A stretch of DNA of 64,000 nt, taken from positions 18,624 through 82,623 of the forward strand of contig CAWDXL010000021.1 of assembly GCA_963806325.1 (NCBI GenBank), written 5' to 3'. Both the position numbers and the translations under genes were made by a program. This document shows positions 11,201 to 48,540 of this stretch, one piece after another (the stretch's first letter is position 1; the number at the start of each line of letters is the position of its first letter). The notes under the pieces are model-generated. The model did no database searches and had not been told where the DNA came from. It was given only the letters and a program-made list of their open reading frames with translations. This DNA comes from Candidatus Parcubacteria bacterium. GTDB lineage: Bacteria > Patescibacteriota > Minisyncoccia > Phycocordibacterales > JAKAEA01.

Positions 11201-12328
11201 TCACAGCCTATTTATGTCAGCAGTTCTGAAACGTATACAATCACATGTTCAAATTCTGCCGGTTCAAGCAGTGACACTGCTACAGTTACTGTTACTCCGA
11301 CTGTCTACACGACACCGGTCGTAACTCTCTCTGCTGTTCCGACCTCTGATTTTTCAACTACTCAGGGAGGGGATATAAATCTTGTGTGGACGGTAAATGA
11401 TTATGGCGATTCAGGAACAATATGTCTTGCGTCTGGATACAACTGGAATGGTGACGTGGATCCGACAGGAGGCACTTCACAGCCTATTTATGTCAGCAGT
11501 TCTGAAACGTATACGCTTACGTGTACAAACTCTGCCGGTCTCTCGGGTAACGCTGTTGCTCAGGTAAGTGTTATTCCTCAAAATACAGCGCCTACTGTAA
11601 GTCTGAATGCTCAGCCGTCAAGCATTGTAAACGGCAATTCTTCAGTGTTAACATGGTCATCTTCATCAAACGCGGTTTCGTGCTCAAGCAATAGCTTCTC
11701 AACGGGCGGTCTGACTAATAGTTCATCCGGTGTCATAGTTTATCCAACTGTTACTACAGTCTATAGCATTACGTGTACCGATTCTGCGGGCGACGTTTCA
11801 TCTCCGGCCACTGCTACTGTTACGGTCAGCGCATTGTCTGCACCGACAGCAAATCTGTATGCGAATGGCACGACACTGACATGGAATTCAACTAATGCAG
11901 ACTCATGTGTTGGTTCTGGGTTTTCAACCTCAGGCCTTACCAGCAGTTCTGTGGGGGTAACGGTAAGCCCGGGTAATTACAGCATTACCTGTACAAATTC
12001 AACGACAGGAGCATCGGCCGCGGCGTCTATCACGGTCAACAATCCTACTACGGGTCCAGCGTGTTATCCTACACAGAGCAATCTGCGTGTAACATCAGCT
12101 ATCGTAAAAACTCAAATTGTTTGGCAAAATTCCGCTGCTTCTCCTGTGGGCTGGTATCAAAATAATGTTTGGCTCGCCACAAGCACTGAATTTACAACAT
12201 CCTATAGCACGGTCGGTTTGGTTTCTATGAAGATGCTCTATCCGCTTGGCGGAGGAAGCTACCAATTAATTCCATGCCAGCCTGTGCCGCTCAATATCAA
12301 ACCAGTGCCTACCGTCGGTGAAATCTAA
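8246..12328 (+). CDS. Giant surface protein, paralog 1 (signal peptide, beta-sandwich N-region, two TM helices, 7 Ig-like repeats, conserved C-terminal module)
   Basis: An uninterrupted 1360-aa ORF. Signal peptide MMKKLFVCVVGAAALLCASAVHA. Hydrophobic helices IESIVALLIACIVVAILFKLL and TLVLIFALTAAGAYFGI. It has repeated two-Cys Thr/Ser-rich modules and the C-terminal motif CYPTQ...CQPVPLNIKPVP. Confidence 0.85.
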   Translation: MMKKLFVCVVGAAALLCASAVHAQDVQNIAPDVYVRNITIPETSYKAGDTVAGTVDLINGDATGIPDIVYQISLGTDYQKNGLIGALYDTITSSPIFLSPQADQTVSFSYKLPVVFDTTTNLTLHIQAFLKSGVPLGWTDMPITVSGGIPALKIGTVSLMVGGTTYNAGVGPTIYQDGTSTLSVSLTNPATSTLTVTPHVVIYDHSTTGKMIEQYSEAAFSMKAGGSAVVNYTVPVFNYTPGVYVGEITFTDSNNLTRSVPIDFRYIVAGNIVTLHSITTQKTTAAVGDSIPITINYSGTPYDISTGTTQGNNNALLDVQLYNEKDQLVGEYQDTTDFNSGNSKTVPIAAAVEAQALRINVSVTSAGKILASYAAPLTGNYDQAHQQALDEQAAHAARIQLAIESIVALLIACIVVAILFKLLNPKHRTTLVLIFALTAAGAYFGIHTVSAYTTISHQSINGVWDYTGYNFNNGSYPTSLDSQGYKPQGYQNPDGDGSKWHVVGDCKTDDLSSPSSGCDDLSPQVTINTPGTTDTFTPGQTFYLTGSAFALACMNNPLDIIVSGTFNGGSTLTTTKNNINNYNGKEGDLSSFNTTFSVGPFTAPTTPGTYTLNFRVDSYTNIPGRTTNMSDYNKDSKAPGGTLDPATTGGYLTGSVIVTVVPPVPVVALVATPTSILSGNTSTLKWSATNSPTSCTASASPSDSSWSGSVTATSATSTQSTSALTQTTTYTLVCKNSGGTSNTATATVTVTEPNVPVVTLTATSPITSGATATLSFSATNSPTSCTASASPSDSSWNGSKTVTSSTKTQSTSALTQTTTYTLTCTNAGGTSAPASATVTVTSPQTTAPKVSLTASPTSVYSGSPSTLIWSVDNGGDSGTSCDDGGDGWYTGGMSGSVSTGALYAATSYTLNCKNNAGSDSDTATVAIEAPQASIPVVSLSAVEDSNFSGTNGGNIYLNWQTQNVPTTCLASGYGWNGDVDPTGGTSQPIYVSSSETYTITCSNSAGSSSDTATVTVTPTVYTTPVVTLSAVPTSDFSTTQGGDINLVWTVNDYGDSGTICLASGYNWNGDVDPTGGTSQPIYVSSSETYTLTCTNSAGLSGNAVAQVSVIPQNTAPTVSLNAQPSSIVNGNSSVLTWSSSSNAVSCSSNSFSTGGLTNSSSGVIVYPTVTTVYSITCTDSAGDVSSPATATVTVSALSAPTANLYANGTTLTWNSTNADSCVGSGFSTSGLTSSSVGVTVSPGNYSITCTNSTTGASAAASITVNNPTTGPACYPTQSNLRVTSAIVKTQIVWQNSAASPVGWYQNNVWLATSTEFTTSYSTVGLVSMKMLYPLGGGSYQLIPCQPVPLNIKPVPTVGEI
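10236..12050 (+). repeat. Intragenic tandem array of ~270-280-nt (85-95-aa) Ig-like module repeats, about 7 copies
   Basis: Recurring ...TL.WS..N.PTSCTASA...W.GS......T.Q.T..L...TTYTLTC.N.GG.S...ATVTV. It includes perfect DNA repeats (47 nt at 10304/10574 and 72 nt at 11167/11443). Array edges are approximate. Confidence 0.8.
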
Positions 12329-12346: not shown

Positions 12347-15300
12347 ATGATGATGAAAAAGTTGTTTTTGTGTATCTTTGCTGGAATTGTGGCACTAACA
12401 GGTTTTGCCGCCATTGCCCAAGCAGACACACTGCCTGTACCGCCGCAGGTCTTCGTCAAGGATATTACGCTCGATAAAACTACATACAGTGCGGGAAGCA
12501 TTGTTACTGGATCATTTGCTCTTGAAAATGGCACATTAGGAACCAATATCTCCGGCATTATGTATCATGTGTCACTTACGGGTGATTACAATTCCAATGG
12601 ATTGGCTGGCTTGTATTACGATACAAAAATTTATGGACCGGTATTTTTAACGGGTTCAGATACGCATAAAATTATACATTTCAGCTATGTTCTTCCGAAA
12701 ACGTTCGGTGGTACGGGGCTTGGTATTCAGGTGAGAGCCTATCTCGCAACAGGAGACCCTCTTGGCTGGTCAGATGCATTTATTACCGTGACTGGTGCAT
12801 TGAGCCATGCCTCTATCACGGACGAATCATTGATTGTTGATACTGCGCAGACATCGATACCTCAGCGTTTTACCGTTTTGTCTGGGCCAACAATCTATAA
12901 AAATGCGCACGGTGCTCTTGCGGTGGCGATTTCAAATACATCTAAAGATTCCCTGTCCCTGGTACCGCATATTGTCATATACGACAGATCCGTTTCGGGA
13001 AAAATTCTTGATGTATATAATGCTACATCATCCGTAATTCTTGCATCGGGCGGCAGCCGGAACCTGTCATTTTCGTTGCCGACATTTGATTATCAGGCAG
13101 GTGTGTATTTTGGTGAGCTTAATTTTCTTGATGCGCAAGGAATGGCTCGGACAGTACCTGTGCAGTTTCGATACATTATCGCTGGTGATATTTTGAGCAT
13201 CTCATCCATTACATCTCCGGTTTCAGCAGTGACAAAAGGAGACATTCTTAATCTTACAGTTACGTATGCCGGTGCACCGTACGATATTTTTACGGGCGAA
13301 ACACCCGGTACTACTACGGCTGATCTCGCAGTAAATGTTTACAATGAGAAAGATCAGCTTGTCGGCACATATACCGAGCGCTCGATGGATTTTAATTCAG
13401 GTGCGTCAAAAATACTGCCCGTTCCTATATATAAAAATGCTCAGGCATTGCGCGTGGTTGCTACTGTGACGAGCGGCAGCAAGATGATTACCTCATATAC
13501 AGCCGATCTCTCGGCAAATTATGAGGAAATGCATAGTCAGCCGGGTATCAGCGAGAATTTGTTTGGTCTCATTGCTATTGTTGTGGCAGCCCTGATAATA
13601 ATCGGTCTCACCATATTCTTCTTCATGAAGAAAAAAGGGAAGTACATGCTTATGACCCTTTTGATTATGGTTGGTGTAGGATGCATTGGGTATAGACCTG
13701 CCACCGCTTTTACCGTTACAGGTACTCATTTTATTAATGTAGTGTGGGATTACGTTACGACCGGTATATGGCAGCCTGCCAATTCAACTGATCCTTATGC
13801 CGACGGATATGAACCTTTTGCCAACAATAATCCATCCTATACTCTCCCGTGGCTTCACTACGCAAGTTCGGGTACAGGTGATCCGAGTGAAGTGCCGACT
13901 GTTCTTATTAACTATCCCACAGACTCTGACACACTTCAGCCAAACCAATCATTTTATATTACGGGCAGTACGTATGCTGCGGCGTGTGAAAATAATCCTC
14001 AAGATATTCTCGTTACTATTACGTTCAACGGCGAGACTCGTACTGAAAGCTTTGGAGATGTAAACAGTTACAACGGCGATCATGATGTTGTCAACAGTCC
14101 TGTAACTGATTTTTCAGTTGGACCTTTTACTGCGCCTGCATCAGGTACATCACAAGCTGTCATAAGAGTCGATAATTATACCAATGTTCCCGGCCAGTCG
14201 AGCAATGAAAAAGCGCGTATTGCATTTGAAAAAAATACAGGTCTCAAACCTCCCACTACATCCGGAGCGACGGAAGGTATAGATACTACAGGAGGTGATA
14301 CGGAAGGGGTGCAAAATATTGTTGTTGCTTCGTCTGTTCCGACTGTGTCTCTCACTGCCAGTCCATCAAGTGTTACAAGCGGCGGCAGTTCAATCTTGAC
14401 ATGGACGACAACAAATTCGCCGACATCATGTACTGCTTCAGGTGACTGGACTGGCTCAAAAACAGCTACGGGCGGCACGCAGTCGATGAGTAATCTCACC
14501 ACAACAAAAAATTACACAATCACATGCACAAATTCTGCGGGTTCAGGTAATGATACTGCGACCGTGACAGTGACTTCACCAAATATTCCTGTCGTCTCAT
14601 TTTCTTCGAATGTAACGAGCTATACCACAGGTGGCGGCAATCCTTTGTTTACATGGTCAGCCACAAACTCCCCAACGTCGTGTACTGCGACCGGCGGCAC
14701 GAGTTCGTGGGATGCGGTCACAGCCACATCGGGCACTAGTCAGCAATTTGGTCCCATTTCTCAGACAACCACATATACACTTGCATGTACAAATGCGGGA
14801 GGGGTTTCAGCGCCTGTGTCGATAACAATTAACGTCTCGGATGCATCACAATATTGGCTTGCTACATGGATTAATTGCAATGGTCCTAATTCCGGAAATC
14901 CGAATGATACCGGCCAATGCTACATAAAACAAACAGGTTCTAGTGCGCCGAGTGCTGTTCCAAATTATGACTACGTGCTTCAGTGTCAAGCAGGCAACGA
15001 TTTTATCTGGGATATCAACGGGGCTTATTCCTGTGTTTCCGATACTCGAGAATACTCGATATCATTTTCACAAATCTCAAGCCAGCAAGCCAGCCAATAT
15101 GTGGAATGTGCTCCTGATATGTGTTCTGTTGCATCCGGACCAGCAGTCCCTCCTACAGTGACTCTTGCTTCGCAAGATCCAAATTTACTGCCAATTGATG
15201 ATGGTTCGGTCGACAGTATTCATTTTACCCTTGATAATGGGGGAGACCCGAATACTACATGTGTCATGAATAATAGTGGCGGTGATCGATATTGGGATAA

Positions 15301-17773
15301 TTGGTCAGGTGTATACTCCAATAATGTAGATCAGTACATTTCAACTGATACTCTCTATACTACAACCACGTATACGGTGACATGCTGGAACTCAGTTGGC
15401 TCTGATAGCGCGAGCACTGTTGTTACCGTTAAACCTCCTACAGTGCCATATACTCCTCCTACGGCAACTATCACTGCAAATCCGCAAAATGTTGCCTACA
15501 ACGGAACAGTTACATTGAGTGGAACAGTAAATGCTGGAGGTGATCCCGATTTATATTGTGAAATAATTGATGCTAATTATATGTGGCGCGCGTATGGATA
15601 TGGAATGGATGATTATTTAAGTACGTATGACAATCCTCCCGACCTTATTGGTCCTGACGCTAATGGTGCATATACTTATTCCCAGACAATAACACCATAT
15701 GATGATTGGGGAAATTCACGATCCTCAATTCAATATGAAATAACATGTACAAACTCAGTAGGGAGGATAAGTGCTACAACCACAGTAACTACATATATTC
15801 CTCCTGTTGTGACTCTTTCCGCAAATCCGACAAACTTTGTTGGTAGCGGCAATCCGACGCTGACATGGACGGTTGACGATGGCGGAGATCCAAATACAAC
15901 GTGTGCCGGCAGTGGCGGCTGGCAAGGTTCAGTCAACGCAGCGGGAGGTACATGGACATTGCCAAATACAATCACGCAAGCTACCACCTATACACTTATA
16001 TGTACAAATGGAGCCGGTGACTCAAATACTGCGACTGCCACGGTCACTATTGGTAATCCTCCAAATATTTCTCTTGCCGCCAATCCTTCTTCGGCAGAGG
16101 TCGGTTCATACTCGCAGTTAAACTGGACGCTCAATGATCAGGATGAATCAATCAGTGATTGCATTTTGAGCAATGACGCCAATGACTATACAACTGATTT
16201 TGCCTATTATCCTTACGAATACGGAAGTTATGACGATACTACTGGAAACTGGGTGTACTATGACGGCAGCCAAGAATCATATCTCCTCACCTCAACCGTT
16301 ACATACACTCTTACATGTATTAATCCGTATGGTTCTGATAGTGCCACTGCGACAATTACTGTTGCTCCGCCAACACTTCCTTCTGTTAGTTTAAGCGCGG
16401 ATCCGGCATTGATTTATTCCAATGATACATCTGATTTATCGTGGAACATCGACAATGGAAATGATTCAGCAACATACTGCTATCTGACTGATGATCAGGA
16501 TAATTTCTATACCACTATCGAATATTACGGTTACCAATATACAACATCTCCATATACCACGCCTCCACTTTCAGCAACGACAGAGTATACAATTACATGT
16601 ACAAACTCTGTTGGTACCGTGAGCGGCTCTGCAACGGTTACCGTTAATCCTCAGACTGATCCTCCATACGTCACACTAACCGCTGATCCAAATCCCGTAA
16701 GTGCTGGAGACACATCAACAATCTCATGGTCGGCAACGAATGAGCCGACGTCATGTACAGCCTGGGGTGATTGGCAGGGACAGGGAATGCCTGCAGCTGG
16801 ATCGTGGACGACTGGCCCGCTTACAACAACCACAACGTATAGTCTTTCATGCAGCAACGGTGCGGGTATCTCAAATACCGCGACTGTACAAGTTCCTCTT
16901 TTAAGCAATCAGCCAGCAGTCACACTTGTTTCAGATGAAGATCCAAACAATCCTATTTCGAGCGGCCAATCTGCAAACCTGAGCTGGACGATAGACAATA
17001 AAGGCGATCCAGATACCTCATGCAATTTAATTGACGACTATAATAGTTTTAATCAGCAAATTGAACCGCCAGCAACGCCGACCGGCACTATGTCTACCGG
17101 CTATCTGACGGCTGATACCACATTTACGCTCACCTGTACAAATAAATATGGCACAGCAAGTGCCGACACAACAGTGACAGTCAATCAGACATGTGTTCCT
17201 GCAGTCGGGGTGACCGCAGACAACTCCGTCACCGTTTTGGCTCCTCCACAGCGAATACTGACATGGTCTTCAAATTGTATGAATTCATGCTCGAGTGCTG
17301 ATTTCACGGTGCCTATTGATTTGACTACCGGCCTTGGTCAAACTTCCGGCTCTACATTTGTACCGGTGCCATCAATATCCGAAAGTCCAAAGAAATACAC
17401 CGTTATGTGCACCCCTCTCACAGGATCATCAGAATCTGGTTTTGCGTATGTTTATCACAACAACGATACTCTTCCAACCTGTTATCCTAAACAATATGGT
17501 TTGGCGGTCACGTCCGCTATTATAAAAACACCGATTACGTGGATATCGGCGAATATTGATTCTTCGGATACTGTGACTGGCTGGCAAGGAGATAATGGCT
17601 GCAACAGCGATACCTGCACATATTCTCAGGTTGGCTTGGTGCATATGTCTATGATCGTTTCATCATCGACTCCGACCGTGGTTAATGGTGTATCTACAGA
17701 TCCGAGTATGACGATTGAATGCCAGCCTACGCCGCTCAATATAAAACCAATCCCCGTTATTAAAGAATTTTAG
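12347..17773 (+). CDS. Giant surface protein, paralog 2 (same architecture, about 12 Ig-like repeats)
   Basis: An uninterrupted 1808-aa ORF. Signal peptide MMMKKLFLCIFAGIVALTGFAAIAQA. Its N-region is collinear with paralog 1 (e.g. FRYI(V/I)AGxI, YNEKDQLVG). It has a central hydrophobic pair and the C-terminal motif CYPKQ...CQPTPLNIKPIP. Confidence 0.85.
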   Translation: MMMKKLFLCIFAGIVALTGFAAIAQADTLPVPPQVFVKDITLDKTTYSAGSIVTGSFALENGTLGTNISGIMYHVSLTGDYNSNGLAGLYYDTKIYGPVFLTGSDTHKIIHFSYVLPKTFGGTGLGIQVRAYLATGDPLGWSDAFITVTGALSHASITDESLIVDTAQTSIPQRFTVLSGPTIYKNAHGALAVAISNTSKDSLSLVPHIVIYDRSVSGKILDVYNATSSVILASGGSRNLSFSLPTFDYQAGVYFGELNFLDAQGMARTVPVQFRYIIAGDILSISSITSPVSAVTKGDILNLTVTYAGAPYDIFTGETPGTTTADLAVNVYNEKDQLVGTYTERSMDFNSGASKILPVPIYKNAQALRVVATVTSGSKMITSYTADLSANYEEMHSQPGISENLFGLIAIVVAALIIIGLTIFFFMKKKGKYMLMTLLIMVGVGCIGYRPATAFTVTGTHFINVVWDYVTTGIWQPANSTDPYADGYEPFANNNPSYTLPWLHYASSGTGDPSEVPTVLINYPTDSDTLQPNQSFYITGSTYAAACENNPQDILVTITFNGETRTESFGDVNSYNGDHDVVNSPVTDFSVGPFTAPASGTSQAVIRVDNYTNVPGQSSNEKARIAFEKNTGLKPPTTSGATEGIDTTGGDTEGVQNIVVASSVPTVSLTASPSSVTSGGSSILTWTTTNSPTSCTASGDWTGSKTATGGTQSMSNLTTTKNYTITCTNSAGSGNDTATVTVTSPNIPVVSFSSNVTSYTTGGGNPLFTWSATNSPTSCTATGGTSSWDAVTATSGTSQQFGPISQTTTYTLACTNAGGVSAPVSITINVSDASQYWLATWINCNGPNSGNPNDTGQCYIKQTGSSAPSAVPNYDYVLQCQAGNDFIWDINGAYSCVSDTREYSISFSQISSQQASQYVECAPDMCSVASGPAVPPTVTLASQDPNLLPIDDGSVDSIHFTLDNGGDPNTTCVMNNSGGDRYWDNWSGVYSNNVDQYISTDTLYTTTTYTVTCWNSVGSDSASTVVTVKPPTVPYTPPTATITANPQNVAYNGTVTLSGTVNAGGDPDLYCEIIDANYMWRAYGYGMDDYLSTYDNPPDLIGPDANGAYTYSQTITPYDDWGNSRSSIQYEITCTNSVGRISATTTVTTYIPPVVTLSANPTNFVGSGNPTLTWTVDDGGDPNTTCAGSGGWQGSVNAAGGTWTLPNTITQATTYTLICTNGAGDSNTATATVTIGNPPNISLAANPSSAEVGSYSQLNWTLNDQDESISDCILSNDANDYTTDFAYYPYEYGSYDDTTGNWVYYDGSQESYLLTSTVTYTLTCINPYGSDSATATITVAPPTLPSVSLSADPALIYSNDTSDLSWNIDNGNDSATYCYLTDDQDNFYTTIEYYGYQYTTSPYTTPPLSATTEYTITCTNSVGTVSGSATVTVNPQTDPPYVTLTADPNPVSAGDTSTISWSATNEPTSCTAWGDWQGQGMPAAGSWTTGPLTTTTTYSLSCSNGAGISNTATVQVPLLSNQPAVTLVSDEDPNNPISSGQSANLSWTIDNKGDPDTSCNLIDDYNSFNQQIEPPATPTGTMSTGYLTADTTFTLTCTNKYGTASADTTVTVNQTCVPAVGVTADNSVTVLAPPQRILTWSSNCMNSCSSADFTVPIDLTTGLGQTSGSTFVPVPSISESPKKYTVMCTPLTGSSESGFAYVYHNNDTLPTCYPKQYGLAVTSAIIKTPITWISANIDSSDTVTGWQGDNGCNSDTCTYSQVGLVHMSMIVSSSTPTVVNGVSTDPSMTIECQPTPLNIKPIPVIKEF
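14335..17470 (+). repeat. Intragenic array of diverged Ig-like module repeats (about 12), interrupted by a Cys-rich non-repeat insert near 14830-15140
   Basis: It has the same two-Cys module consensus as paralog 1 and shares a 22-nt string with it (acaaattcgccgacatcatgta at 14411). Array edges are approximate. Confidence 0.7.
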
Positions 17774-23665: not shown

Positions 23666-24402
23666 ATGCTTTCAAATTCATCCGACCCACGCGCAAAAGC
23701 AGAGGAACAGCGAAGAATTAATGAAGAACAGAAAGTGGAAGAAAAAAAGCGCCGTGACCATGAGGAGCGTCTGCGCGCCATTGAAGCCAAGAAACGGGAG
23801 TATGAAAATAAAAAGAAGGAGCTTATAGCTGCACAAAACGAGCGCCGCCGTTTTGGAGAAGATCTTGAACATGCAAAACGGGCACTTGCTATGGGAGGCA
23901 AGATTTTGATATTACCAGTAGTCGGCATGTTCATGATGAAGAAATGTTGGCACAGCAGCAAGCTCATGCGTTGCAGGAAAAGACCCAGGAACAGTCAAGA
24001 ATTGACCGCGAGATCAGGGAGCTTGAATTACAGCTTGCCGACAAAAGAAAACAGCATGAGGCGTTAAGAGCTGAATTGGAACATGTTGGCCACGAGCCTG
24101 TGCACAAAAAAACTGGATTTGCAGCATTTACTCCCGAGCAGGTGGAAAAGAGAAAATATTTTGACACTACCAAACGGCAATTCTCTGAAAAAGAATCTAA
24201 ACTCAAAGATATGGATCAGCATATTCGCCAGCTTGCTTCCGACACCGAAAAAGATGAGCGTGATATTAGTCAACTCTTGAACGGGCGCGCTAGCTCAGGG
24301 CAAATATTATTTATACATATATATCGTAAAGTCCTGCGGAAGATAATCCGTGACAATTTCTACGCGGTCACAGAATGTTTTACAAAAGCCAGCGACAGAT
24401 GA
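23666..24402 (+). CDS. Hypothetical coiled-coil protein (Lys/Glu/Arg-rich), with a frame break near 23930
   Basis: ORFs 23666-24067 and 23944-24402 are both strongly charged heptad-like sequence (EEQRRINEEQKVEEKKRRDHEE..., REIRELELQLADKRKQHEALRAELE). The last ~95 nt overlap the convergent methyltransferase, so the true 3' end is uncertain. Confidence 0.5.
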
Positions 24403-24942
24403 CGGATCATAGGCAGCAAAATCAGCATCGTCAATATGGGTAGCACGGTTTAGCATATTAAATGCGACGCCGATAGTAGCGAGATCAAACATTTTTTTAA
24501 TGCAGGAAAAATAATATGCCTGGTGATTTTGTATCTTGAAACTCAATGCACCGGAGGCGAGAACATAGTCAAAAATTTTGTTATTGTCAAAATTATGTTC
24601 GAGAATATTGCCCGTCAAAAATTTTCCTTCTGGGTAGCGGGCAGCTGCATGTGCTGTAAATTCCGGCATGATATCAATGCCTGTATAATCGACTTCAATG
24701 CATCTTTTCAGAAGATATTTATACAGATCGCCCAAGCCGCAACCCACGTCAAGAATACTTTTGTTATGTATGTCGCCGATGCCGAGCAATACGTCAAATC
24801 GTATGCGCTGATTGCGCGCGTCGCTCCAGTGCAGGCTGCGCGCGTCGGCGTCGCCAAATTCCGTCAAAGCTGTTTCGTAAAAATCATGAAGCCGTTTCTT
24901 GTCGTTTTCTTCAATGTGAGGAAGGGGAGTGATGTTTGCCAT
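24307..24942 (-). CDS. Class I SAM-dependent methyltransferase
   Basis: Motif I ILDVGCGLGDL. The start is taken at MANITPLPH (24942), because the longer ORF to 25080 reads antisense through the tRNA-Thr 5' exon. Confidence 0.8.
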   Translation of the reverse strand: MANITPLPHIEENDKKRLHDFYETALTEFGDADARSLHWSDARNQRIRFDVLLGIGDIHNKSILDVGCGLGDLYKYLLKRCIEVDYTGIDIMPEFTAHAAARYPEGKFLTGNILEHNFDNNKIFDYVLASGALSFKIQNHQAYYFSCIKKMFDLATIGVAFNMLNRATHIDDADFAAYDPSSVAGFCKTFCDRVEIVTDYLPQDFTIYMYK

Positions 24943-25038
24943 AGGGCTTATGATATGCGCGAACCATATTTTTTGCAAAAATACTGAAAATACCCTAATA
25001 TGAGGCGTACCCAGGTTTTTCAGTTCATTACAATATAT

Positions 25039-25313
25039 GCCGATGTAGCTCAGTTGGTAGAGCACGTCATTGGTAAACAAAATTGCCCTTCATCTTGGAA
25101 ACGAGATGCTGAAGCCCGAATAACGGTTAACGTCCATGTGTGTGGATAAGACCGTGGCGACAATCGCCCGAACGACTGACAAGGGGTGCTTCACTCATGA
25201 AAGCATGGGTATGCGCAAGATACAGTCTAACCCTCCTATAATCCGCCACGGCGGAGAAATGGAGGTAGATGTGAATGACGAGGTCAACGGTTCAATCCCG
25301 TTCATCGGCTCCA
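25039..25313 (+). tRNA. tRNA-Thr (GGU) interrupted after anticodon position 36 by a ~199-nt intron; encoded CCA
   Basis: The 5' exon is gccgatg-ta-gctc-agttggta-gagc-a-cgtca-ttggt (25039-25074). The 3' exon is aa-tgacg-aggtc-aacgg-ttcaatc-ccgtt-catcggc-t-cca (25274-25313). Joined, they give a perfect 73-nt cloverleaf with loop ttGGTaa. Confidence 0.85.
25075..25273 (+). ncRNA. Group I-like self-splicing intron in the tRNA-Thr anticodon loop (no ORF)
   Basis: The 5' exon ends in U and the insert ends in G. The insertion site between nt 36 and 37 matches known bacterial tRNA group I introns. The internal gcaagatacagtctaac resembles the conserved AAGAUAUAGUC core element (from memory). Several stem-loops are present (ggcga-caa-tcgcc, tccgc-cacg-gcgga, cctcc...ggagg). 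Confidence 0.65.
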
Positions 25314-25358
25314 ACATAAATAAAAGCACTGCATTTGATATGAGGTGCTTTTATTTAT

Positions 25359-25646
25359 ATGGATATACGTATATTGGGACAGAGGTTTGATGATTACTCG
25401 AAATATATTCGCGGACTTTCAAAGCACACGATTGCAAGAAATAGGCTAGTGCTCAGGCTTTACTGCAATTACAGCAAGGTTGCAAACATAGAGGAGGTGA
25501 CAGAAGAAAGCGTACAAGGTTTCTTTGTATACGGTAGAACGCAGCGTCAGTGGAAAGCAAATACTTTTATTGTATTCAGCTTGTCGCTCCGAGTGTTTTT
25601 TAGATGGGATTGGTTAGAAAATTTGGTAGAGAATACAAACATTTAA
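25359..25646 (+). pseudogene. Tyrosine integrase remnant (N-terminal SAM-like core-binding domain only)
   Basis: 95 aa with the pattern ...YIRGLSKHTIARNRLVLRLY...VTEESVQGFF...ANTFIVFSLSLRVFFRW. It is typical of phage-integrase N domains but has no catalytic domain. It lies directly 3' of the tRNA. Confidence 0.55.
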
Positions 25647-25836
25647 TTCATTAAGATAAGTTCGAACGCTGTCCTAGAGGATTAGAGAGATAGACCTCAT
25701 TACTCATACTAACATGATTTATAAATGACACATCTATTTTACTTTGTCAAAATAGTATGTTAAACTACCCGGTAGGTAGTTGTTTGAAATAAACCATAAA
25801 CCGAGCTTTTGGCTTACTCACGAAAGGATGTGTCTC

Positions 25837-27752
25837 ATGCAGGTTACACCTCGCATCTACCAAAACGTGGCTGTGGAAGTTGCACTCAAGGGTCTGCGAG
25901 GCAGCCTCAGGCGCGCTCTCGTAGTCCTCGCGACAGGTCTTGGCAAAACCTTGACCGTCGCGTTCATCACCAAGAAATTCCGTCCCAAAAAGACGTTGTT
26001 TCTGGTTCACAACAACTTCATCCTCAAGCATGCCTTGGATGAGTTTCGCCTGGTTTTCGATGAGAAGACAACGATGGCGACATACAATGGCATGTCGAGA
26101 GATGGAGCAAAGGAAGCCGACATGGTTTTTGCTACCTGGCAGACCATGAGTAAAAACCTCAAGCGCTGGGCACGAAACCACTTTTGATCTCATTATTGTG
26201 GATGAAGCTCATCACTCGGAGGCTGATACCTATCGACCGGTGACTGCGTATTTCACTGGAGCGAAGCTTGGTATCACTGCTACGCCTGATCGACAAGACG
26301 ATGCGGACATCCGTGACGTCTTTGGTCCGGAAGTGATCAATATCACGCTCGAAGAAGCTATTGCCCGCGGGTGGCTGCCTCGAATCGAGTATCACGTCAT
26401 CACTGACGAGAGTCTCGACGAGAACATGCTTCAGAAAATCGTTGGAGAGATCCGCGAAGGTAAGAAGCGTTTTACGATGGCAGAAGTCAACCGTCGTATC
26501 TTCATCAAGAAGCGTGATGTTGAGATCACTCGGATCATCAACGGCTACGCCGAGAAGGCTGTCGTGTTCTGCAGCTCGATCACTCATGCTGAGCGACTGA
26601 GCCAGACGCTTGACCTTGCCGCAACCTTTCATTGCAAGAAGGGTAGCGGACAGAAAGAGACCTACAATCAAAATCGTGATACTCTCGAAGATTTGAAGAA
26701 TGGGAAAGTTCGTCGGGTGTGCGCAGTCAATGCCTTCAATGAAGGTGTGAATGTGCCAACCGTCGGACTCGTCAGCCTTCTGTCGGGTCACTGGAGTCCT
26801 GACGATTTTCCGGCAACAGTTGGGTCGCGGGCTTCGTCCTGGAAAGGACAAGCTCATCGTTCTCGACTTTGTCGGGAATCTCGAGCGCATTCAATTGGTG
26901 CTTGAGATGATGAACAAGGTTTCTGATCTTCATGAACAATATACTCCTAGGGATGAAATTGAACGTGAAGGTTATGTCCGGCAGAAGTTTGAAGTATCCG
27001 GAAAAGGATTTGAGTTTACCTTCTCTGACAAGGTAGTGGACTTAATGAAAGTTTTGCAGCATTGCGAACGGCAATTTTACCCGACATGGCAGGAAGCCAG
27101 TGGAGTAGCTGCAAAATTGGGGATTAGAACCAAGGAGGAATACTACAGGCGTTATATGGAAGATGAACGTCTCCCAAGTAGTCCTTCGAGCATGTATTCT
27201 GATTTCCCCGATTGGTCGATGTTTCTGCGAGGAGAAATGCGCAAAAATTATTACCCAACTCTGGATCAGGCAAGGAAGTCTGTACAGAAGTTGGGTATTG
27301 TATCTTATCCGGAATACAAGAGGCGTTTTAAGGAGGACTCGCGTCTTCCAAGTAATCCGAACAGAGAATACCGCAATTTTCCAGGCTATCGAATCTTCTT
27401 GGGGGTGAGCAAGAAAAAGTACAGGACATGGCAGGAAGCCAGTCGTGCTGCTTTAAAGCTTGGAATAGACTCTCTTTCTGAATATCGTAAGCGTCGTAAG
27501 GAAGATCTTGCTCTTCCAGGTGATCCCAATTTCACCTACTCTGATTTTCCAGGCTATCGAGTATTCTTCGGTAGAAATTTTCAGTCAAAATATCAGTCCT
27601 GCATTTTGGCTGCAAAAGCTGCAAGAAAATTGGGTATTCACTCGGCGAGTGATTACAAGCAGCGTTATAAGCAGGACCCACTCCTTCCTGGCAACCCTTA
27701 CGGGATGTATGAGGATTTTCCGGGCTGGCCCCAATTCCTTGGCAAGAAGTGA
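25837..27752 (+). pseudogene. SF2 DEAH-box helicase (type III restriction res-subunit-like) with a C-terminal 4x ~57-aa repeat; two frame breaks
   Basis: Motif I LATGLGKT, motif II IIVDEAHH (restored by shortening T4 at 26182-26185), motif VI QQLGRGLRPGK in the third ORF. The C-terminal repeats follow the pattern W/LxxA...KLGI.S..EY..R.KED.RLP..P...Y.DFPGW..FLG. Confidence 0.75.
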
Positions 27753-27765
27753 AAGGACTTACTTT

Positions 27766-27803
27766 AGCCCCGCACATCAGAAATGGTGGAGCGGGGCTTT
27801 TCA
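27766..27803 (+). terminator. Hairpin terminator candidate after the helicase gene
   Basis: agccccgc...gcggggct (8 bp, 17-nt loop) followed by ttttcatt. Confidence 0.45.
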
Positions 27804-28102
27804 TTGTTAATAAAGATGAAACAGAAACCCCGAACCGAAAGGAATGGGATTTAATTATTATATAAAAAAGGCACCGGAGAATCTCATGGATTCAAGAACG
27901 GTGCCGTATCTAATCATTACTTAAATGAAGTGAAAGAAGACATGATTTCTCAAAATTATGCTGTTGTTCTTTCTATAAAAGACAAATCAAAAAGCGGTCA
28001 ACTTAGAAGTCAGTTACTTCAAAAAAATCAACTTGTTGAGTTAGTAGAGAATGCTATAAAAGTTAAAGCATAGTAGTTTTTAGAGTTACTTTTTATTAAA
28101 GA

Positions 28103-28140
28103 AAAAGAGCCGCCCAACCTGATGTTGAAACGGCTCTTGA
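28103..28140 (-). terminator. Terminator candidate for the minus-strand gene 28164-28565
   Basis: On the minus strand aagagccg...cggctctt (8 bp, 18-nt loop) is followed by ttttcttt. Confidence 0.45.
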
Positions 28141-28163
28141 ATTGCCCGAAGCATGGTGTGAGT

Positions 28164-28565
28164 TCACGCAGCCTCGCGAGTCTCCAGATAGTCCTGCACA
28201 GTGTAGACCATACCCTTGAGCTCTCCCTCAAGGACGGACATCGCTGAGATGCAGCGGGGTCGATCGATCTTGCCGCCACCTTCGGCTTGCTTGAGCGAAC
28301 GATCCAGATGATGGATCTGCTGAAGGCAGAAGTGAATGCGGAGTGCATAGGTACGAAGGTCTTCACCTTTGAGTGCCTTTGAAAGGGTTTGATCAACCCA
28401 TGCCGCATTGCGCTTCATTGTGTCGCGGAACTGGCGCACCAGCTCCACAGCGTTGGGCTGCATGAGAGCTTCAGCAAAGACAAGCGGATACGCCGCCTGT
28501 CGGAACGCGATCTGTTGATCGGTATCAAGGGGACTATTTGGAATAGCCTTAAATGGGCCGAGCAT
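28164..28565 (-). CDS. Hypothetical protein (island cargo)
   Basis: About 133 aa starting at MLGPFKAIPN, preceded by gaggtg 5-6 nt upstream. GC-rich. No recognisable motif. Confidence 0.5.
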   Translation of the reverse strand: MLGPFKAIPNSPLDTDQQIAFRQAAYPLVFAEALMQPNAVELVRQFRDTMKRNAAWVDQTLSKALKGEDLRTYALRIHFCLQQIHHLDRSLKQAEGGGKIDRPRCISAMSVLEGELKGMVYTVQDYLETREAA

Positions 28566-28959
28566 TAGGCACCTCACTTTCTTGTGGTTAAGGTTCTAGC
28601 GCTAATACTACGCAAAAAGCGAAGAAAGGCAAGAATACAGATAGGCTCAGAACGTGTCAGCCCCCGTGTCCCTTAAAATCGAGGCGTGTGCGATTGTGTC
28701 CCCGCTGTTCGACGAAGTGCCACTCCTGGAAGAGTGTTCGCAACGTGGGGCAACGTGACAAGCGTGTGAGGAAAACTAGGCACGATCATTGCGCAAAGCA
28801 GCGACCTTTTGATATAATTAGTTGGGTCTTTTTGGAGACTTTTATTGGGAGCAAAAACGGGTGATAAACTGGCCCCCACAACGACATACATTTAATGAAC
28901 TGAAACACGATTATAGCCAGTAAAATAAAGCCTTGTAATGGTTTAGACCTCGGGAGAAT

Positions 28960-29006
28960 ATTTGGTAATGACGAGGTCAACGGTTCAATCCCGTTCATCG
29001 GCTCCA
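28960..29006 (+). repeat. Direct repeat: intron-less copy of the tRNA-Thr(GGU) 3' half (att-like island boundary)
   Basis: ttggtaatgacgaggtcaacggttcaatcccgttcatcggctcca is identical to exon 1 nt 25070-25074 joined directly to exon 2 (25274-25313), with no intron. Confidence 0.85.
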
Positions 29007-29099
29007 ATTACTCATACTAAACAGATTTTTGTTGTAAATATTGATGTGTTATTGTGACGGGAGGTTGTTTTTATGTAAAAATTTTCTCAGATTTTGAAT

Positions 29100-29384
29100 T
29101 TAAATTATGTTAGGATTCCGAGTGCGCAGCTGAAGATAAATATTCCGACCGTAAATAAAAAAGCTCAGTACCTGGGCGGTTGAGAAGACAACGTCCTTAA
29201 TGTGAATCGAATAAATCAGAATAATAATCGTGCCAAGGACGCTCAGATACCAGAAGCCCATCGGTATGGTGACCGCTTTATTTTTTTCAGAAGCGATCCA
29301 TTGCACGATGAATCGCAAAAAGAAAATGAATTGGCCAAAAAAGCCAAAGACGATCCAGGGATTAAAAAGATCTGCGATACTCAT
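29100..29384 (-). CDS. Small membrane protein, lipid-A-biosynthesis N-terminal (LAB_N) domain-like
   Basis: 94 aa with three TM helices and the pattern GFFGQFIFFLRFIVQW...EKNK. It overlaps the upstream GT2 gene by 4 nt, which is a common pairing. Confidence 0.6.
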   Translation of the reverse strand: MSIADLFNPWIVFGFFGQFIFFLRFIVQWIASEKNKAVTIPMGFWYLSVLGTIIILIYSIHIKDVVFSTAQVLSFFIYGRNIYLQLRTRNPNII

Positions 29385-30136
29385 AATAAAATGCTTTTAA
29401 AAGAAAAATGTATCGGATGCAGAGAATCGGCGTCCTTGTGTTTGATGTGGTAGCTTATCCGCAGTGCCGTGACCAATCCTGTAATTCCATATATGAAGCG
29501 GGACATGCTATATTTGCTTGCCCCATGAATTCGCCGGCGGTGATGGACTTTTATTTCTGTTATTGAAGTATAGCCATGTGCTTTGGCAAGCATGGGTATA
29601 AAACGATGGAGACTGCCGTATAAAGGCAGGCTTTGTGCCGTTTCTCGGCGGTATGCCTTGAAACCGCAATTGTGATCATGAAGGTATATGCCGCTTGCGA
29701 TTGACGTGACAAAATTATAAATTTTTGAGGTTTGATTTTTTACCAGAGAATCAAGCCGCCTGTATTTCCAGCCCGACACAAGATCATATCCATCATCAAT
29801 TTTTTTGATAAATCTCGGAATTTCAGAAGGATCATCTTGTCCGTCTCCATCCATTGTAATGAGTATGCTGCCGCGGGCAAGATCAAAACCTGCGCGCAGC
29901 GCCGTGGCCTTGCCATAATTTTTATCAAAATTGATAGCTTTGATATGTTCTCGGTCGCGCAGATAGAGTTCTGTAATTTTTGATTCAGTACCGTCGGTGC
30001 TGCCGTCATTGACGAAGATTATTTCGTACGTGCGCATTCCAGCATCCATAATGCGTTTGATTTGTGCATAAAGAATGGGAAAATTATCTTCCTCATTAAA
30101 TACTGGAATAACTATTGATACATCAAAAGAATGCAT
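29381..30136 (-). CDS. Family 2 glycosyltransferase (polyprenyl-phosphate sugar transferase-like)
   Basis: VSIVIPVFNEEDNFP...IIFVNDGSTDGT...ITMDGDGQDDP, the GT-A DxD signature. Confidence 0.85.
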   Translation of the reverse strand: MHSFDVSIVIPVFNEEDNFPILYAQIKRIMDAGMRTYEIIFVNDGSTDGTESKITELYLRDREHIKAINFDKNYGKATALRAGFDLARGSILITMDGDGQDDPSEIPRFIKKIDDGYDLVSGWKYRRLDSLVKNQTSKIYNFVTSIASGIYLHDHNCGFKAYRRETAQSLPLYGSLHRFIPMLAKAHGYTSITEIKVHHRRRIHGASKYSMSRFIYGITGLVTALRISYHIKHKDADSLHPIHFSFKSILL

Positions 30137-30190
30137 GATATTGAAATATATTTCCTGCGTAGTATGTAACGTACAGACGAGAAATATATT

Positions 30191-31055
30191 TCAATACGCC
30201 AAAAAGGATGCATAAAAAAAGCCCGGGAATATTTTCCCGGGCCGGCTAAAGATAAAATATCCGCATGAAAATGTTATCCTGCTGCGAAAGCCCCTATCGT
30301 GCCGCCACTGTTTCCAGCAGCAGGAATATAGAGCGGAGCTTGAGTGCATGTAGGATGCAATCTTGCGCCGCACAGACCGGCTTGACAAGCTTCTCCCGAA
30401 TTTATTCACGAATAGTTCGACAGTGTGGGACTCGCAAAAAGCCGCATCTCGCATTTTGAGATAAGTGAGGAGTGCGGCGTGTGCGGTATCATTCAAAGAA
30501 ATTATCCTCGGTCTTGCGTTGATGCCCATGAGACGGAGAGTGCGTCCGTCCGCTTCGCTGTTGATCGCGCTTCGGGGAATCTCTATGAGCTCACTGATCT
30601 TTGCGCCGGTGGTATACATTATATGCATGATCGCCAGATCACGAGCGCCAGATAGGGTGGTTGCGTCGGGTATAGCGAGCACTTTTGCCATCTCTTCGGA
30701 CGTGATCGGTTTTACAGCCTGTCGCACACACTTGGGTGCGTACAGATGTATCGTCGGGTTAGCCGCTACCATCTTTTCGCCTGCCAGCCATTTGTACAGG
30801 GTCCTGAGGCTGGAACATTTTCTAGCAATCGTATTTGGGGAATATTGTTCATGCAGGCTGGAGGTATAGCGCCGTGGTCTGCTCGTTGGCCGACAGCATG
30901 AGTTGACACATGTTTGCACTGCAGTTTCCTTGCCTGAGATAAGCTTCATATTGCGCCACGTCGACACCGTAGCATGCGATCGTCTGATCGCTCATACGGC
31001 ACTCATGTCTGAGGTAGCTGAGAAACTGACCGACAAGCGTAAGCTGCGCTTCCAT
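30191..31055 (-). pseudogene. Decayed Xer-like tyrosine recombinase (multiple frame breaks, degenerate catalytic C-terminus)
   Basis: N-terminal piece 30849-31055 (LVGQFLSYLRHECRMSDQTIACYGVDVAQYEAYL). Middle piece with TIARKCSSLRTLYKWL, ARDLAIMHIMYTTGAKISELIEI. I could not recover the expected HxLRH...LLGH...Y box cleanly in any frame. Confidence 0.6.
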
Positions 31056-31292
31056 AAAAGGCTCCTTGCGGTAAAAGGTACGAAGTCATGTGTTCATCTG
31101 CGGAGATTTTTACCACTATCTTTTGCCTGAGTCAAATGATTGTTTATACGAATCGGACCTGTTTTTTTAGACAACAATTACAATATTTCGCGTCTACACT
31201 ATCTGTCGGTGATGCTGGTGCAAAATGTTGCATTGATGGGACGGTACAACTCTGATACTATGACTACGACAACAATGTAGGTTTTACCGCTT

Positions 31293-32124
31293 ATGAATCC
31301 AGACACAAACGCCACACCCGCTATTTCGGGGCTCCCCGGTCCTATTGTACTTTTGCGCGCTGCGCTCATTTTGTATGGTTCGCGGATACGAGTCGTACTC
31401 TCTATGACGTGTCTCGCATTTGTCGCAGTCTTGCTTGCAGGAGTAGTGCCGGCAGATCATGTGACGATTTCATTTTTTGCCGGTCTCCTGAGTCTTATCG
31501 TAGTCTACCTTACATCTGTCGGTCTTATTTATGCATGTGCGGATCCTGGCGCAAAAAATAAATCTTATATAATTTACTATCAGCAGGCATGGTTCTGCAT
31601 CGGTATGTATATATGGGTCTGGTTCCTTATTTTGTTTACGGTTGCAGGCGCTGCAATTTTTCTCGTTGTTCCTGCAGTCATCGCTTTTGTATATTTTTCT
31701 CTTGCCGGGTTTACTGTCGTCTTGGAAGGAAAGCAGGGCTTTGATGCACTTATCCAAAGTGCCCGATATGTGCGCCGGTCATGGTGGGCAGTGTTTGGCC
31801 GGATTTTTTTCCTCGGTTTTATGCTTGCACTCCTCGCTCTTTTTTTGAATACACTTTTTCTCGGTCAGAGCAGTTCATGGTGGGCGCAAACTGTAACACC
31901 AGGCAATCAGTATGCTGTGTGTGGTACCTATTTCTACCGCATACATATATCTTATGTATGCCGATCTCAAGCAGCGCGCTGCTCTTAATCCGGAAACGCC
32001 TGAGCCGCAGACGTGGGATTCGAAAAGAATATATCGGCTGGTGGTTATTCTTTCTGCATTGGGTTTTGCTGCGCTTTGCTTGCTTGCACTCAACGGTACA
32101 CTGAGCGCATTCTTTGCAAAATGA
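31293..32124 (+). CDS. Hypothetical polytopic membrane protein, with a frame break near 31900
   Basis: ORFs 31293-31988 and 31912-32124 are both hydrophobic and collinear. The second frame holds the plausible C-terminus ...YLMYADLKQRAALNPE. Confidence 0.5.
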
Positions 32125-32214
32125 CGCAAAATCGCATACGATAGCGAAGAGTACACATGCCACCTTAGCTGTTTTGACTGATATCACACAAAACATTTAA
32201 GATAGGGCATACGC

Positions 32215-32287
32215 GCCACCTTAGCTCAGTTGGTAGAGCACCACTTTCGTAAAGTGGGGGTCCGCAGTTCGATCCTGCGAGGTGGCT
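32215..32287 (+). tRNA. tRNA-Thr (CGU)
   Basis: Acceptor gccacct/aggtggc, D arm gctc-agttggta-gagc, anticodon arm ccact-ttcgtaa-agtgg, T arm cgcag-ttcgatc-ctgcg. Confidence 0.9.
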
Positions 32288-32290
32288 CAC

Positions 32291-33175
32291 ATGAACAAAG
32301 AGGAACTTGATAAGAAAATAGCGGAGCTCGAAGCCCGCATGGCCGCACCTGATTTTTGGGCAGACAAGGTGAAAGCGCAGGCTGTCATCAAAGAAATCCA
32401 AGATCTGAAAGCTGAAAAAGAATCGGGCGGCATGAGCGGAAAGTATGATCGCGGCGGAGCAATCCTCACTATCTTTTCCGGAGCTGGCGGTGATGATGCC
32501 GAGGATTTTTCCGGCATGCTTCTTTCGATGTATCGCAAATATATTGAAAAAAAAGGCTGGGGCATTGAGCTTATTCACGAGCATACAAATGATCATGGCG
32601 GCTATCGCAATGTGGCGATTGAAATCAGCGGCAAAAATGTCTACGGCACATTGAAAAATGAATCAGGTGTCCATCGGCTCGTGCGCATCTCGCCGTTCAA
32701 TTCAAAAGCTCAGCGCCACACATCGTTTTCTCTTGTTGAAGTCGTGCCAAGATTTGATAAAGCCGAAGATCTCCCCTTGAAGCCTGATGAAATACGCGTA
32801 GAGCTTTCAAAAGCCGGCGGTCCTGGCGGACAAAATGTAAATAAGCGCGAGACGGCGGTGCGGGTGGTACATATTCCGACAAATATTTCAGTGCACGTCA
32901 CATCCGAGCGGTCGCAGGCGCAGAATAAGGAAAAGGCGCTCCAGATGCTCCGCGGCAAACTCTACAAGCGGGCAGAAGAAGAGCGTGTTGCCGAAGAACA
33001 TGGCATGTCAATTTCAAAAACAGCGGATATCGAATGGGGAAGCCAGATCCGCTCATATGTCATTCATCCTTATAAAATGGTGAAGGATCACCGCACAAAT
33101 GTGGAGACAGGCAATGTCGATAAAGTACTCAATGGTGATATTCAGGAATTTATTGATGCGGAGAGGGAGATATAA
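32291..33175 (+). CDS. prfB: Peptide chain release factor 2, short form (~294 aa), with no programmed-frameshift site
   Basis: SPF tripeptide (RISPFNS), GGQ motif (GPGGQNVNK) and the conserved RHTSF, SQAQNKEKA, WGSQIRSY. ATG 32291 lies 4 nt after the tRNA-Thr end. The GTG at 32282 in the ORF track lies inside the tRNA. Confidence 0.9.
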   Translation: MNKEELDKKIAELEARMAAPDFWADKVKAQAVIKEIQDLKAEKESGGMSGKYDRGGAILTIFSGAGGDDAEDFSGMLLSMYRKYIEKKGWGIELIHEHTNDHGGYRNVAIEISGKNVYGTLKNESGVHRLVRISPFNSKAQRHTSFSLVEVVPRFDKAEDLPLKPDEIRVELSKAGGPGGQNVNKRETAVRVVHIPTNISVHVTSERSQAQNKEKALQMLRGKLYKRAEEERVAEEHGMSISKTADIEWGSQIRSYVIHPYKMVKDHRTNVETGNVDKVLNGDIQEFIDAEREI

Positions 33176-43534: not shown

Positions 43535-43636
43535 ATTACTTCACTTTTATATTTTATTCAAATTACAAAGCGGACTTCTCTTTACCCTCAAAATATGTTT
43601 AAATTGAACCACAACTAAATACGGTATAAGCCTAAA

Positions 43637-43774
43637 CCAGTGAGAAATCACTGGCATGGCATAAAATCCGCACGACACAAGAAAACCCGTTATCAGGGCG
43701 TGTCGTGCGTTGCTGGGAGAAATCCCAGCATGACCTTCGGGTCACCTGGTAGCGGGCTTTGTTGTATCCGCTAC
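43637..43774 (+). ncRNA. Cluster of five consecutive stable hairpins (candidate structured RNA or single-strand replication origin)
   Basis: The five hairpins are ccagtga-GAAA-tcactgg, cgcacgacac...gtgtcgtgcg (10 bp), gctggga-GAAA-tcccagc, tgacc-TTCG-ggtca and gtagcgg...ccgctac. The GNRA and UUCG tetraloops appear only when read on the plus strand. Confidence 0.5.
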
Positions 43775-44369: not shown

Positions 44370-44378
44370 TCTCAATAG

Positions 44379-44403
44379 AACCGCTGAAAAGCGGTTTTAT
44401 TTA
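44379..44403. terminator. Bidirectional hairpin terminator between convergent genes
   Basis: aaccgc-tgaaaa-gcggtt, flanked by T-rich sequence when read on either strand. Confidence 0.6.
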
Positions 44404-46159: not shown

Positions 46160-46179
46160 AACAACTCAGAAAACAAAAA

Positions 46180-48526: not shown

Positions 48527-48540
48527 TTTAATAGAGGGGG

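Follow-up and report, generated by a model that had tools for sequence, protein, structure and literature searches.

In islands of the anticodon-centred class, which integrate at transfer RNA (tRNA) genes, the 7-nt anticodon loop is the crossover segment; the element supplies the right side of the gene, and the original 3' half is displaced. Anticodon-centred attachment sites of tRNA-gene islands were reportedly described by Williams in 2002. According to the Islander collection, about half of the tRNA islands are anticodon-centred (Hudson et al. 2015, PMC4383910). Nakagawa et al. (2026, PMC13011429) described, from three complete genomes of Patescibacteria, divergent group I introns that interrupt tRNA-Thr(GGU) at position 36/37 and escape the Rfam model RF00028; these authors found horizontal transfer to be slight. 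For the archaeon Caldiarchaeum subterraneum, the integration of mobile elements has been proposed as a route of intron gain (Sugahara et al. 2012, PMC3293823). Here, both themes meet at one tRNA-Thr(GGU) gene in a stretch of 64,000 nt from an uncultured, ultra-small bacterium of the Parcubacteria/Paceibacteria type within the candidate phyla radiation (CPR); this stretch (GenBank contig CAWDXL010000021.1, positions 18,624 to 82,623) is hereafter called the window. The gene carries an intron, an intron-free copy of its 3' half lies downstream, and between the two stands a dead, composite islet, which probably integrated at the anticodon loop before the intron was acquired.

The islet shares with the tRNA islands of Islander and TIGER an intact tRNA at one end, a 3' fragment in the same orientation at the other end and recombinase material beside the tRNA; at the level of gene order, it is missing from distant syntenic relatives. 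Unlike those islands, it has an intron in the regenerated gene only, an integrase reduced to ~100 codons and a second, flanking repeat, and its cargo is limited to a helicase pseudogene and one orphan open reading frame (ORF). By its general description, the intron matches those of Nakagawa et al. (2026, PMC13011429) and of tFind (Williams 2020, bioRxiv 10.1101/2020.01.27.920355) in host tRNA, insertion site, size class, lack of an ORF and invisibility to RF00028. On the other hand, Nakagawa et al. do not mention integrases, integration or attachment sites, in contrast to what is seen at the window locus. At the tRNA-Thr(GGU) locus of C. subterraneum, the state of the intron varies together with a displaced piece of the tRNA and an insertion that bears a recombinase (Sugahara et al. 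2012, PMC3293823), and the window shows the same association; however, the introns there are archaeal and protein-spliced (bulge-helix-bulge type) and the fragment is a 5' one, whereas the window has a bacterial, predicted self-splicing group I intron and a 3' fragment. Both parts of the locus are of known kinds, one being a tRNA island in decay and the other a group I intron as known from tRNA-Thr of Patescibacteria. In the literature searched, no bacterial case was found in which the two stand side by side and the split site is preserved as an intron-free fossil. In general, the locus is an ordinary decayed tRNA island without evident function, and it constitutes an unusual historical record but no new mechanism.

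The intron-bearing tRNA-Thr(GGU) gene and its intron-free half copy

A repeat search of the window found an exact 41-nt direct repeat, in which positions 25274-25314 equal positions 28967-29007. Immediately 5' of the right copy, the bases TTGGT at 28962-28966 are the last five bases of exon 1 (25070-25074), and the match stops one base further upstream, where T28961 stands against A25069. By an arithmetic estimate, a 5-nt extension at one fixed position would arise by chance about once in 1000 cases. Taken together, the right-hand segment is identical at 45 of 45 positions to positions 32-76 of the spliced tRNA; it carries no mutations, has the same orientation as the gene and reaches the tRNA 3' end. 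The window contains a 25-mer derived from the repeat at two places only, and none of 100 shuffles contained it even when up to 3 mismatches were tolerated. The half-tRNA is therefore confirmed. The sequence-only reading had placed it at 28960-29006, a start two bases too early, and had described it as the end of exon 1 fused directly to exon 2, that is, as spliced, intron-free sequence; the TTGGT and the exact 41-nt repeat bear this description out. Its further view, in which the repeat represents the 3' part of the tRNA, displaced and free of the intron, in a layout like that of a tRNA-anchored island, also agrees with the present results.

In its default mode, ARAGORN called no tRNA near 25 kb. 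Once introns were allowed, it returned a tRNA-Thr(GGU) with a 199-nt intron at position 37, and the corrected coordinates are 25039-25074 for exon 1 (ending at U36), 25075-25273 for the intron (ending with G) and 25274-25313 for exon 2. Exon 1 ends in ...CGTCA-TTGGT, and exon 2 runs AATGACG...GGCTCCA. A valid tRNA-Thr(GGU) cloverleaf is formed only when the 199-nt intron is removed, and this intact target tRNA is one boundary of the island. The spliced 76-mer is identical at 76 of 76 positions to the intron-less tRNA-Thr(GGU) of two syntenic metagenome contigs, L016 and L017 (see below).

The helices expected of a group I intron were found in canonical order, with their complementarity checked by script on this single sequence. 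In P1, GGU|AA pairs with UUGCC (25072-76/25083-87) and places a U.G pair at the 5' splice site; in P10, AAU, the first three bases of exon 2, pairs with the guide sequence AUU. P2 is a hairpin with a GAAA loop, P3 (25114-17/25184-87) and P7 (25174-78/25223-27; GACUG/CAGUC) form a pseudoknot, and P4-P6, P8 and P9 are also present. The omega G is the last base of the intron, at 25273. The precursor folds with z = -3.8, better than each of 200 shuffles, and no homing-endonuclease ORF lies within the intron. Rfam Intron_gpI (RF00028) gave no match at gathering or permissive thresholds, including E<=10 on the isolated intron. The possibility that the segment is not an intron was rejected, as both manual inspection and the script placed the helices satisfactorily and the same blind spot of Rfam is documented in the literature. 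Judged from these features, the segment 25075-25273 is predicted to be a divergent group I intron of a kind already described in Patescibacteria.

Decayed contents and composite structure of the islet

The features of the locus are compiled in Table 1. Directly behind the hairpin that follows the tRNA lies the N-terminal integrase fragment that had been recognized at first reading, an ORF at 25359-25646 that matches SAM-like domains only. Its in-frame stop is at 25644-25646; in tblastn comparisons, homology reads through this stop and is gone after ~25661. The remnant comprises about 100 codons and corresponds in alignments to residues 1-95 of tyrosine recombinases of roughly 300 aa. An exhaustive HMMER search gave 70 relatives, of which the full-length ones measure 295-325 aa and carry PF00589 at residues ~110-280, while many members of the list are short (62-200 aa); a word-indexed homologue search with the fragment matched only the fragment itself. 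Throughout 24000-32300, including the vicinity of the half-tRNA, tblastn found no catalytic-domain remnant of this family, and the other matches were only weak ones, from few query integrases, to a separate Xer-like pseudogene (30443-30988). The island holds no intact integrase gene of the kind by which a tRNA-anchored integrative island is recognized. The scan for terminators did not call the hairpin at 25316-25358.

The closest longer relative of the fragment (L018, 72-1181), to which it is 43% identical, follows a tRNA-Val(GAC) at a distance of 122 nt and is oriented to it as the fragment is to its tRNA in the window. Pfam gives this relative N-terminal SAM-like domains only and no catalytic domain; by its sequence, it may also be a decayed integrase beside a tRNA. 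Another member of the family (L019) adjoins a second integrase, a methylase and a TrwB-like ATPase, a context like that of a mobile element.

The cargo is a broken superfamily 2 (SF2) helicase and a hypothetical gene, as had been supposed. The helicase is spread over three frames, with a +1 shift in the T-run 26181-26184 and a second shift near 26770, and after frame repair it is 60-70% identical to Parcubacteria proteins of 580-760 aa, which number in the hundreds. At the three loci inspected, its relatives are stand-alone chromosomal genes amid housekeeping genes, with neither an integrase nor flanking att-like repeats, and for this reason the helicase was dropped as a marker of a mobile element family. 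In one relative (L013, 6811-7001), an intact helicase homologue begins 118 nt after a tRNA-Gln, with no flanking repeat found; this layout resembles the arrangement that the window may originally have had, namely, tRNA, ~138 nt and helicase.

The hypothetical ORF at 28164-28577 has no Pfam, PHROG, NCBIfam or PADLOC match and no viral relative. In the arm that follows it (28578-28961), tblastn detected no integrase remnant, and no similarity to the other junctions was seen. Within the island, PHROGs matched the helicase only, and none of the structural, packaging, replication or transfer genes that mark a prophage or plasmid was found. Viral contigs were scanned with the integrase fragment, the hypothetical ORF and the half-tRNA, though not with the helicase, and none of the three gave a match. 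The origin on a CPR phage or plasmid that the sequence-only reading had suggested looking for was not found; the integrase fragment drew a blank among viral contigs, and the helicase, which was not compared with them, has its relatives on Parcubacteria chromosomes. The island is dead, with its integrase truncated and bearing a nonsense codon and its helicase frameshifted twice. Because the intron splits the attL core, no integrase is intact and the helicase is frameshifted, the islet appears to be unable to excise and to be fixed in place.

A second direct repeat, CATTACTCATACTAA, which had escaped the sequence-only reading, matches exactly over 15 nt and over ~23 nt with two single-base indels, at 25698-25720 and 29006-29028; no exact 14-mer copies of it occur elsewhere in the window. 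The right copy continues the half-tRNA directly, and half-tRNA and flank form an uninterrupted block of 67 nt. Between the full tRNA and the left copy, in contrast, there are 384 nt, which hold the hairpin and the remnant of the integrase. No homology extends beyond the ~23-nt flank repeat, and none was found between the arms. The island is composite. Because the left equivalent of the half-tRNA and flank is split by the 384-nt remnant module, the integrase remnant and the helicase cargo may be of separate origin. A tandem model with entry of a second element via the loop was set aside; it requires a deletion whose endpoint coincides precisely with the end of the tRNA, and the left flank repeat is preceded by ~33 nt that do not resemble a tRNA. 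The sequence-only reading had regarded the whole as one element in the attL-int...attR layout. The tRNA-anchored, island-like character is upheld, but its unity as a single element is doubtful, as the second repeat shows a composite.

The island had also been said to be visibly richer in GC than its flanks. Its GC content is 45.8%, compared to 42.8% for the whole window and a mean of 42.5% for sliding 3.7-kb segments, among which it ranks at the 85th percentile, a modest contrast; its tetranucleotide distance is average and not deviant. The profile of GC and k-mers that had been put forward as a check thus does not single out the island. GC at third codon positions (GC3) is clearly raised, at 0.46-0.64 in the helicase and 0.59 in the hypothetical ORF versus 0.37-0.38 in the reference, the two longest ORFs of the window (8246-12328 and 12347-17773), which are presumed to be housekeeping genes.

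With regard to the assembly, an independent Logan unitig (L001, run ERR10755936) is 100% identical to the window over 28978-30751. Its start is the first 31-mer that is unique to the right-hand context, as expected if the reads hold both contexts of the repeat. Exact look-ups of window proteins returned one short unitig.

Table 1. Features of the tRNA-Thr(GGU) locus and its right-hand context (window coordinates)
Feature	Position	Strand	Evidence or remark
tRNA-Thr(GGU), putative regenerated target gene, attL side	25039..25313	+	ARAGORN with introns allowed
Predicted group I-type intron of 199 nt at 36/37, without an ORF	25075..25273	+	inside the 7-nt anticodon loop TTGGT|AA
AT-rich hairpin directly 3' of the tRNA, possible terminator	25316..25358	+	inverted repeat, 19-nt arms, 89% complementary
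Tyrosine recombinase remnant, N-terminal SAM-like domain only	25359..25661	+	Pfam PF02899/PF13495
Left copy of the second repeat (D3L), CATTACTCATACT-AACATGATTT	25698..25720	+	
SF2 helicase pseudogene with four C-terminal INT_rpt repeats	25837..27752	+	Pfam ResIII, Helicase_C, INT_rpt
Hypothetical ORF, 137 aa, 55% GC	28164..28577	-	no family match
Non-coding arm beside the half-tRNA, putative P arm	28578..28961	.	no ORF of note
Intron-less half tRNA-Thr(GGU), anticodon-loop position 32 to CCA	28962..29006	+	attR-type displaced fragment
Right copy of the second repeat (D3R), CATTACTCATACTAAACA-GATTT	29006..29028	+	abuts the half-tRNA, 2-nt overlap
Context block: LAB_N (29100-29384), GT2 (29381-30136), frameshifted XerC/D-like recombinase (30191-31055, at least 2 frames)	29100..31055	-	Pfam, NCBIfam

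Relatives, half-sites elsewhere and the order of events

The collections searched contain no close relative of this organism; the best non-self match of the methyltransferase that neighbours the locus is 60% identical, and species-representative genomes scanned with this methyltransferase gave distant relatives only, without synteny. A metagenome scan with the tRNA 3' 25-mer yielded L016 and L017, and the methyltransferase led to L009, a contig of 1 Mb. The gene order in L016 and L017 is tRNA-Met, tRNA-Met, tRNA-Asp (in L017), tRNA-Thr(GGU), tRNA-Thr(CGU) and prfB, and the window gene downstream of tRNA-Thr(CGU) is likewise prfB by NCBIfam. From tRNA-Thr(CGU) into this downstream gene, both contigs show 66% DNA identity and ~68% tblastx identity to the window; their tRNA-Thr(GGU) is intron-less, and their two tRNA-Thr genes are ~510 nt apart. 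In L009, the order is methyltransferase (58% identical), intron-less tRNA-Thr(GGU), DUF7847, LysE, tRNA-Thr(CGU) and prfB, and the window ORF at 31293-31988 is the homologue of its DUF7847 gene. The two tRNA-Thr genes are separated by 1.85 kb in L009 and by 6.9 kb in the window. By gene order, the island is absent from all three contigs, which are distant relatives (58-68% protein identity). The comparison with related genomes, which had been recommended for this locus, thus produced an intron-less tRNA-Thr(GGU) and no island in each case, but no empty site at the nucleotide level.

Half copies of the same kind were found elsewhere. In L009 (6990-7125, minus strand), a 24-nt scar, TTGGTAATGACGAGGTCTCCGGTT, corresponds to tRNA-Thr(GGU) positions 32-55 and lies 31 nt behind the intact, intron-less tRNA; from its sequence, it looks like the trace of an almost wholly deleted island at the same loop site. 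Four viral contigs (L024 and L027-L029) carry a half tRNA-Thr(GGU) from TTGGTAA to CCA, 130-190 nt from intact tyrosine integrases, and a phage-like contig (L015) carries a half tRNA-Thr with a CGT-type loop (TTCGTAA) ~250 nt from an integrase. The 5' boundary at loop position 32 is common to the window and all of these half copies, and it is the hallmark of anticodon-centred attachment sites, the anticodon loop being one of the recognized crossover subsites beside the T-loop and the junction. The (pro)phage contigs resemble the window in having a half copy that extends to CCA with an adjoining tyrosine integrase; they differ from it in that the integrases are intact, belong to other subfamilies and stand on the half-site side, in that the host lineages are others, and in that there is no intron. 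On L015 (340-500), a second tRNA-like T-arm fragment (~350-385) precedes the half copy, which hints at stacked remnants of attachment sites.

From the scar it is certain that there was once an allele free of the intron, but whether intron gain or integration came first does not follow from it. The relative timing handle on intron mobility that the sequence-only reading had seen in it is accordingly weaker than claimed, the scar recording an intron-free sequence and not a succession of events. The explanation favoured here, with moderate confidence, is that of a dead composite islet in tRNA-Thr(GGU), with the anticodon loop as its attachment site and the intron most likely arriving after integration. 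A tyrosine-integrase element would have recombined with a still uninterrupted tRNA-Thr(GGU) gene, the crossover lying in its 7-nt anticodon loop. The gene would have received a new 3' half from the element, and the old 3' half with its native flank CATTACTCATACT... would have been pushed 3.7 kb downstream (28962-29028). The attachment region of this element would have resembled its target over ~67 nt, and the flank motif near the left end (25698-25720) would be explained by this resemblance. Later, a second, integrase-bearing insertion at the tRNA end may have decayed to the 384-nt remnant, that is, the hairpin and the recombinase N-terminus. The group I intron would have reached the working gene after integration. 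As it encodes no endonuclease, the likeliest route is that an allele with the intron replaced the gene by homologous recombination. Such a later gain is favoured because the boundary at position 32 indicates a loop crossover and because intron-less alleles are present in two syntenic relatives, in one of which (L016/L017) the exons are identical. In this integration model, the empty site would read as the full tRNA joined directly to CATTACTCATACTAAACAG, and the intron-free allele as exon 1-TTGGTAATGACG.

Several results weigh against this explanation. The 384-nt module meets the second repeat with an overlap of only 2 nt (CA), and each model that was tried needs an additional assumption to account for this junction. 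The cargo lacks an integrase of its own, and the helicase relatives are ordinary chromosomal genes without flanking repeats. The contrasts in GC and tetranucleotides are weak. The junction between arm and half-tRNA (28961|28962) is without independent assembly support, and the searches found no intact element, no attP-bearing relative and no nucleotide-level empty site.

The alternatives differ in when, and with what, the intron came. Of the two scenarios considered at first reading, an intron-less attP and a later intron gain, both were kept, and a third one, an intron borne by the element, had been overlooked. It is unlikely, though conceivable, that the intron is older than the island. The element would then have entered via exon 2 (41 bp) or the 15-bp flank motif, and the half-tRNA would be a fossil attP that never belonged to the gene of this host; the attachment site of the circular element, consisting of the half-tRNA and the CATTACTCATACT flank, would have evolved on intron-free hosts, the split loop being unusable. 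A crossover in the 15-nt flank repeat would give the present order without a precise deletion, the half-tRNA is mutation-free, and the intron may be old, as tRNA-Thr(GGU) introns at 36/37 are known from at least three complete Paceibacteria genomes and horizontal transfer is reported to be slight (PMC13011429). However, for this order of events, either recombination of the RecA type would have had to act on very short homology (15-41 bp) or an integrase would have had to act off its site; it also demands that the flank of the element match that of the host at 15 of 15 positions, so that the donor must have been a very close relative without the 384-nt module, and both syntenic relatives examined are intron-less. 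Delivery of the intron by the element itself, through an attachment region of the form TTGGT-intron-exon 2, is considerably harder to credit. Here, a crossover in the 5' part of the loop of an intron-free host gene would have installed the intron along with the new 3' half and displaced the intron-free 3' half of the host. The polarity is as predicted, in that the regenerated gene is interrupted and the displaced fragment is not; the intron starts with AA, so that TTGGTAA is kept at the junction of exon 1 and intron, and an intron without a homing endonuclease needs a vehicle. The same mechanism has been proposed for archaeal tRNA introns (Sugahara 2012, PMC3293823, as summarized in the review PMC8371274). 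Against it, such an attP would have its core-binding arm on the right made up of the intron and thus differ there from the target, and no element with the window intron appeared in the scans. This scenario is rated lowest of the three that involve integration, because every half-site found on (pro)phage contigs is intron-less.

The remaining alternative, which dispenses with integration altogether, is that the half-tRNA and flank are the remnant of a local segmental duplication or that the assembly is chimeric at the 41-nt repeat. A half-tRNA followed by the flank motif is the expected leftover of a tandem duplication, no integrase is intact, and other genes in the window are also broken, namely, the Xer-like recombinase (30191-31055) and a PALP enzyme (48865-50300). 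But the copy starts exactly at loop position 32, like fragments made by integrases, and a recombinase remnant is present; furthermore, the 41-nt repeat is far shorter than typical short reads, and unitig L001 reproduces 28978-30751 and breaks where a real repeat with two contexts predicts. An origin without integration is therefore regarded as highly improbable, and integration at the anticodon loop followed by intron gain is retained as the preferred explanation.

Since the leftover half-tRNA is without the intron that now interrupts the working gene, the island and the intron probably arrived independently. The group I introns of Patescibacteria tRNA genes are free of homing endonucleases, and one chromosome that keeps both an intron-bearing gene and an intron-free copy of the segment now split is a natural record that bears on how they are gained and lost. 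The intron state at the tRNA-Thr(GGU) site appears to have changed on the timescale of island decay. There is a slim chance that the element delivered the intron via the tRNA 3' part of its attachment site, or that the intron acts as a lock that, by destroying the attachment site in the anticodon loop, blocks excision and further integrations; if either were true, the unusually abundant endonuclease-less tRNA introns of CPR bacteria would be tied to the traffic of integrative elements. The locus suggests that the tRNA-Thr(GGU) genes of Paceibacteria be compared for the presence of introns and of islands, which might reveal whether such introns are brought by integrative elements, come after them or keep them out.

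Neighbouring features of the window

To the right of the islet, the block of LAB_N, GT2 and Xer-like genes is not found between the tRNA-Thr genes of L009 and L017, and it may be an older island. A search right of 29030 for a decayed third half-tRNA gave nothing above the shuffled background.

To the left, two overlapping ORFs on the plus strand (23666-24067 and 23944-24402, together 23666-24402) encode charged, coiled-coil-like sequence with no Pfam match and may be one frameshifted gene. The most deviant composition of the window lies at 44000-51500, with ~30-35% GC and the highest tetranucleotide distance; this may be another foreign region. It contains a DUF4238 protein (44397-45296, minus strand) and several orphan ORFs. 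On the minus strand at 48865-50300, a PALP enzyme with a rhodanese domain is divided between two overlapping ORFs (48865-49854 and 49725-50300), an apparent frameshift. In addition, the Rfam LOOT RNA motif is matched over its full length at 43629-43744 on the plus strand, with 78 bits compared to a gathering score of 46.4.

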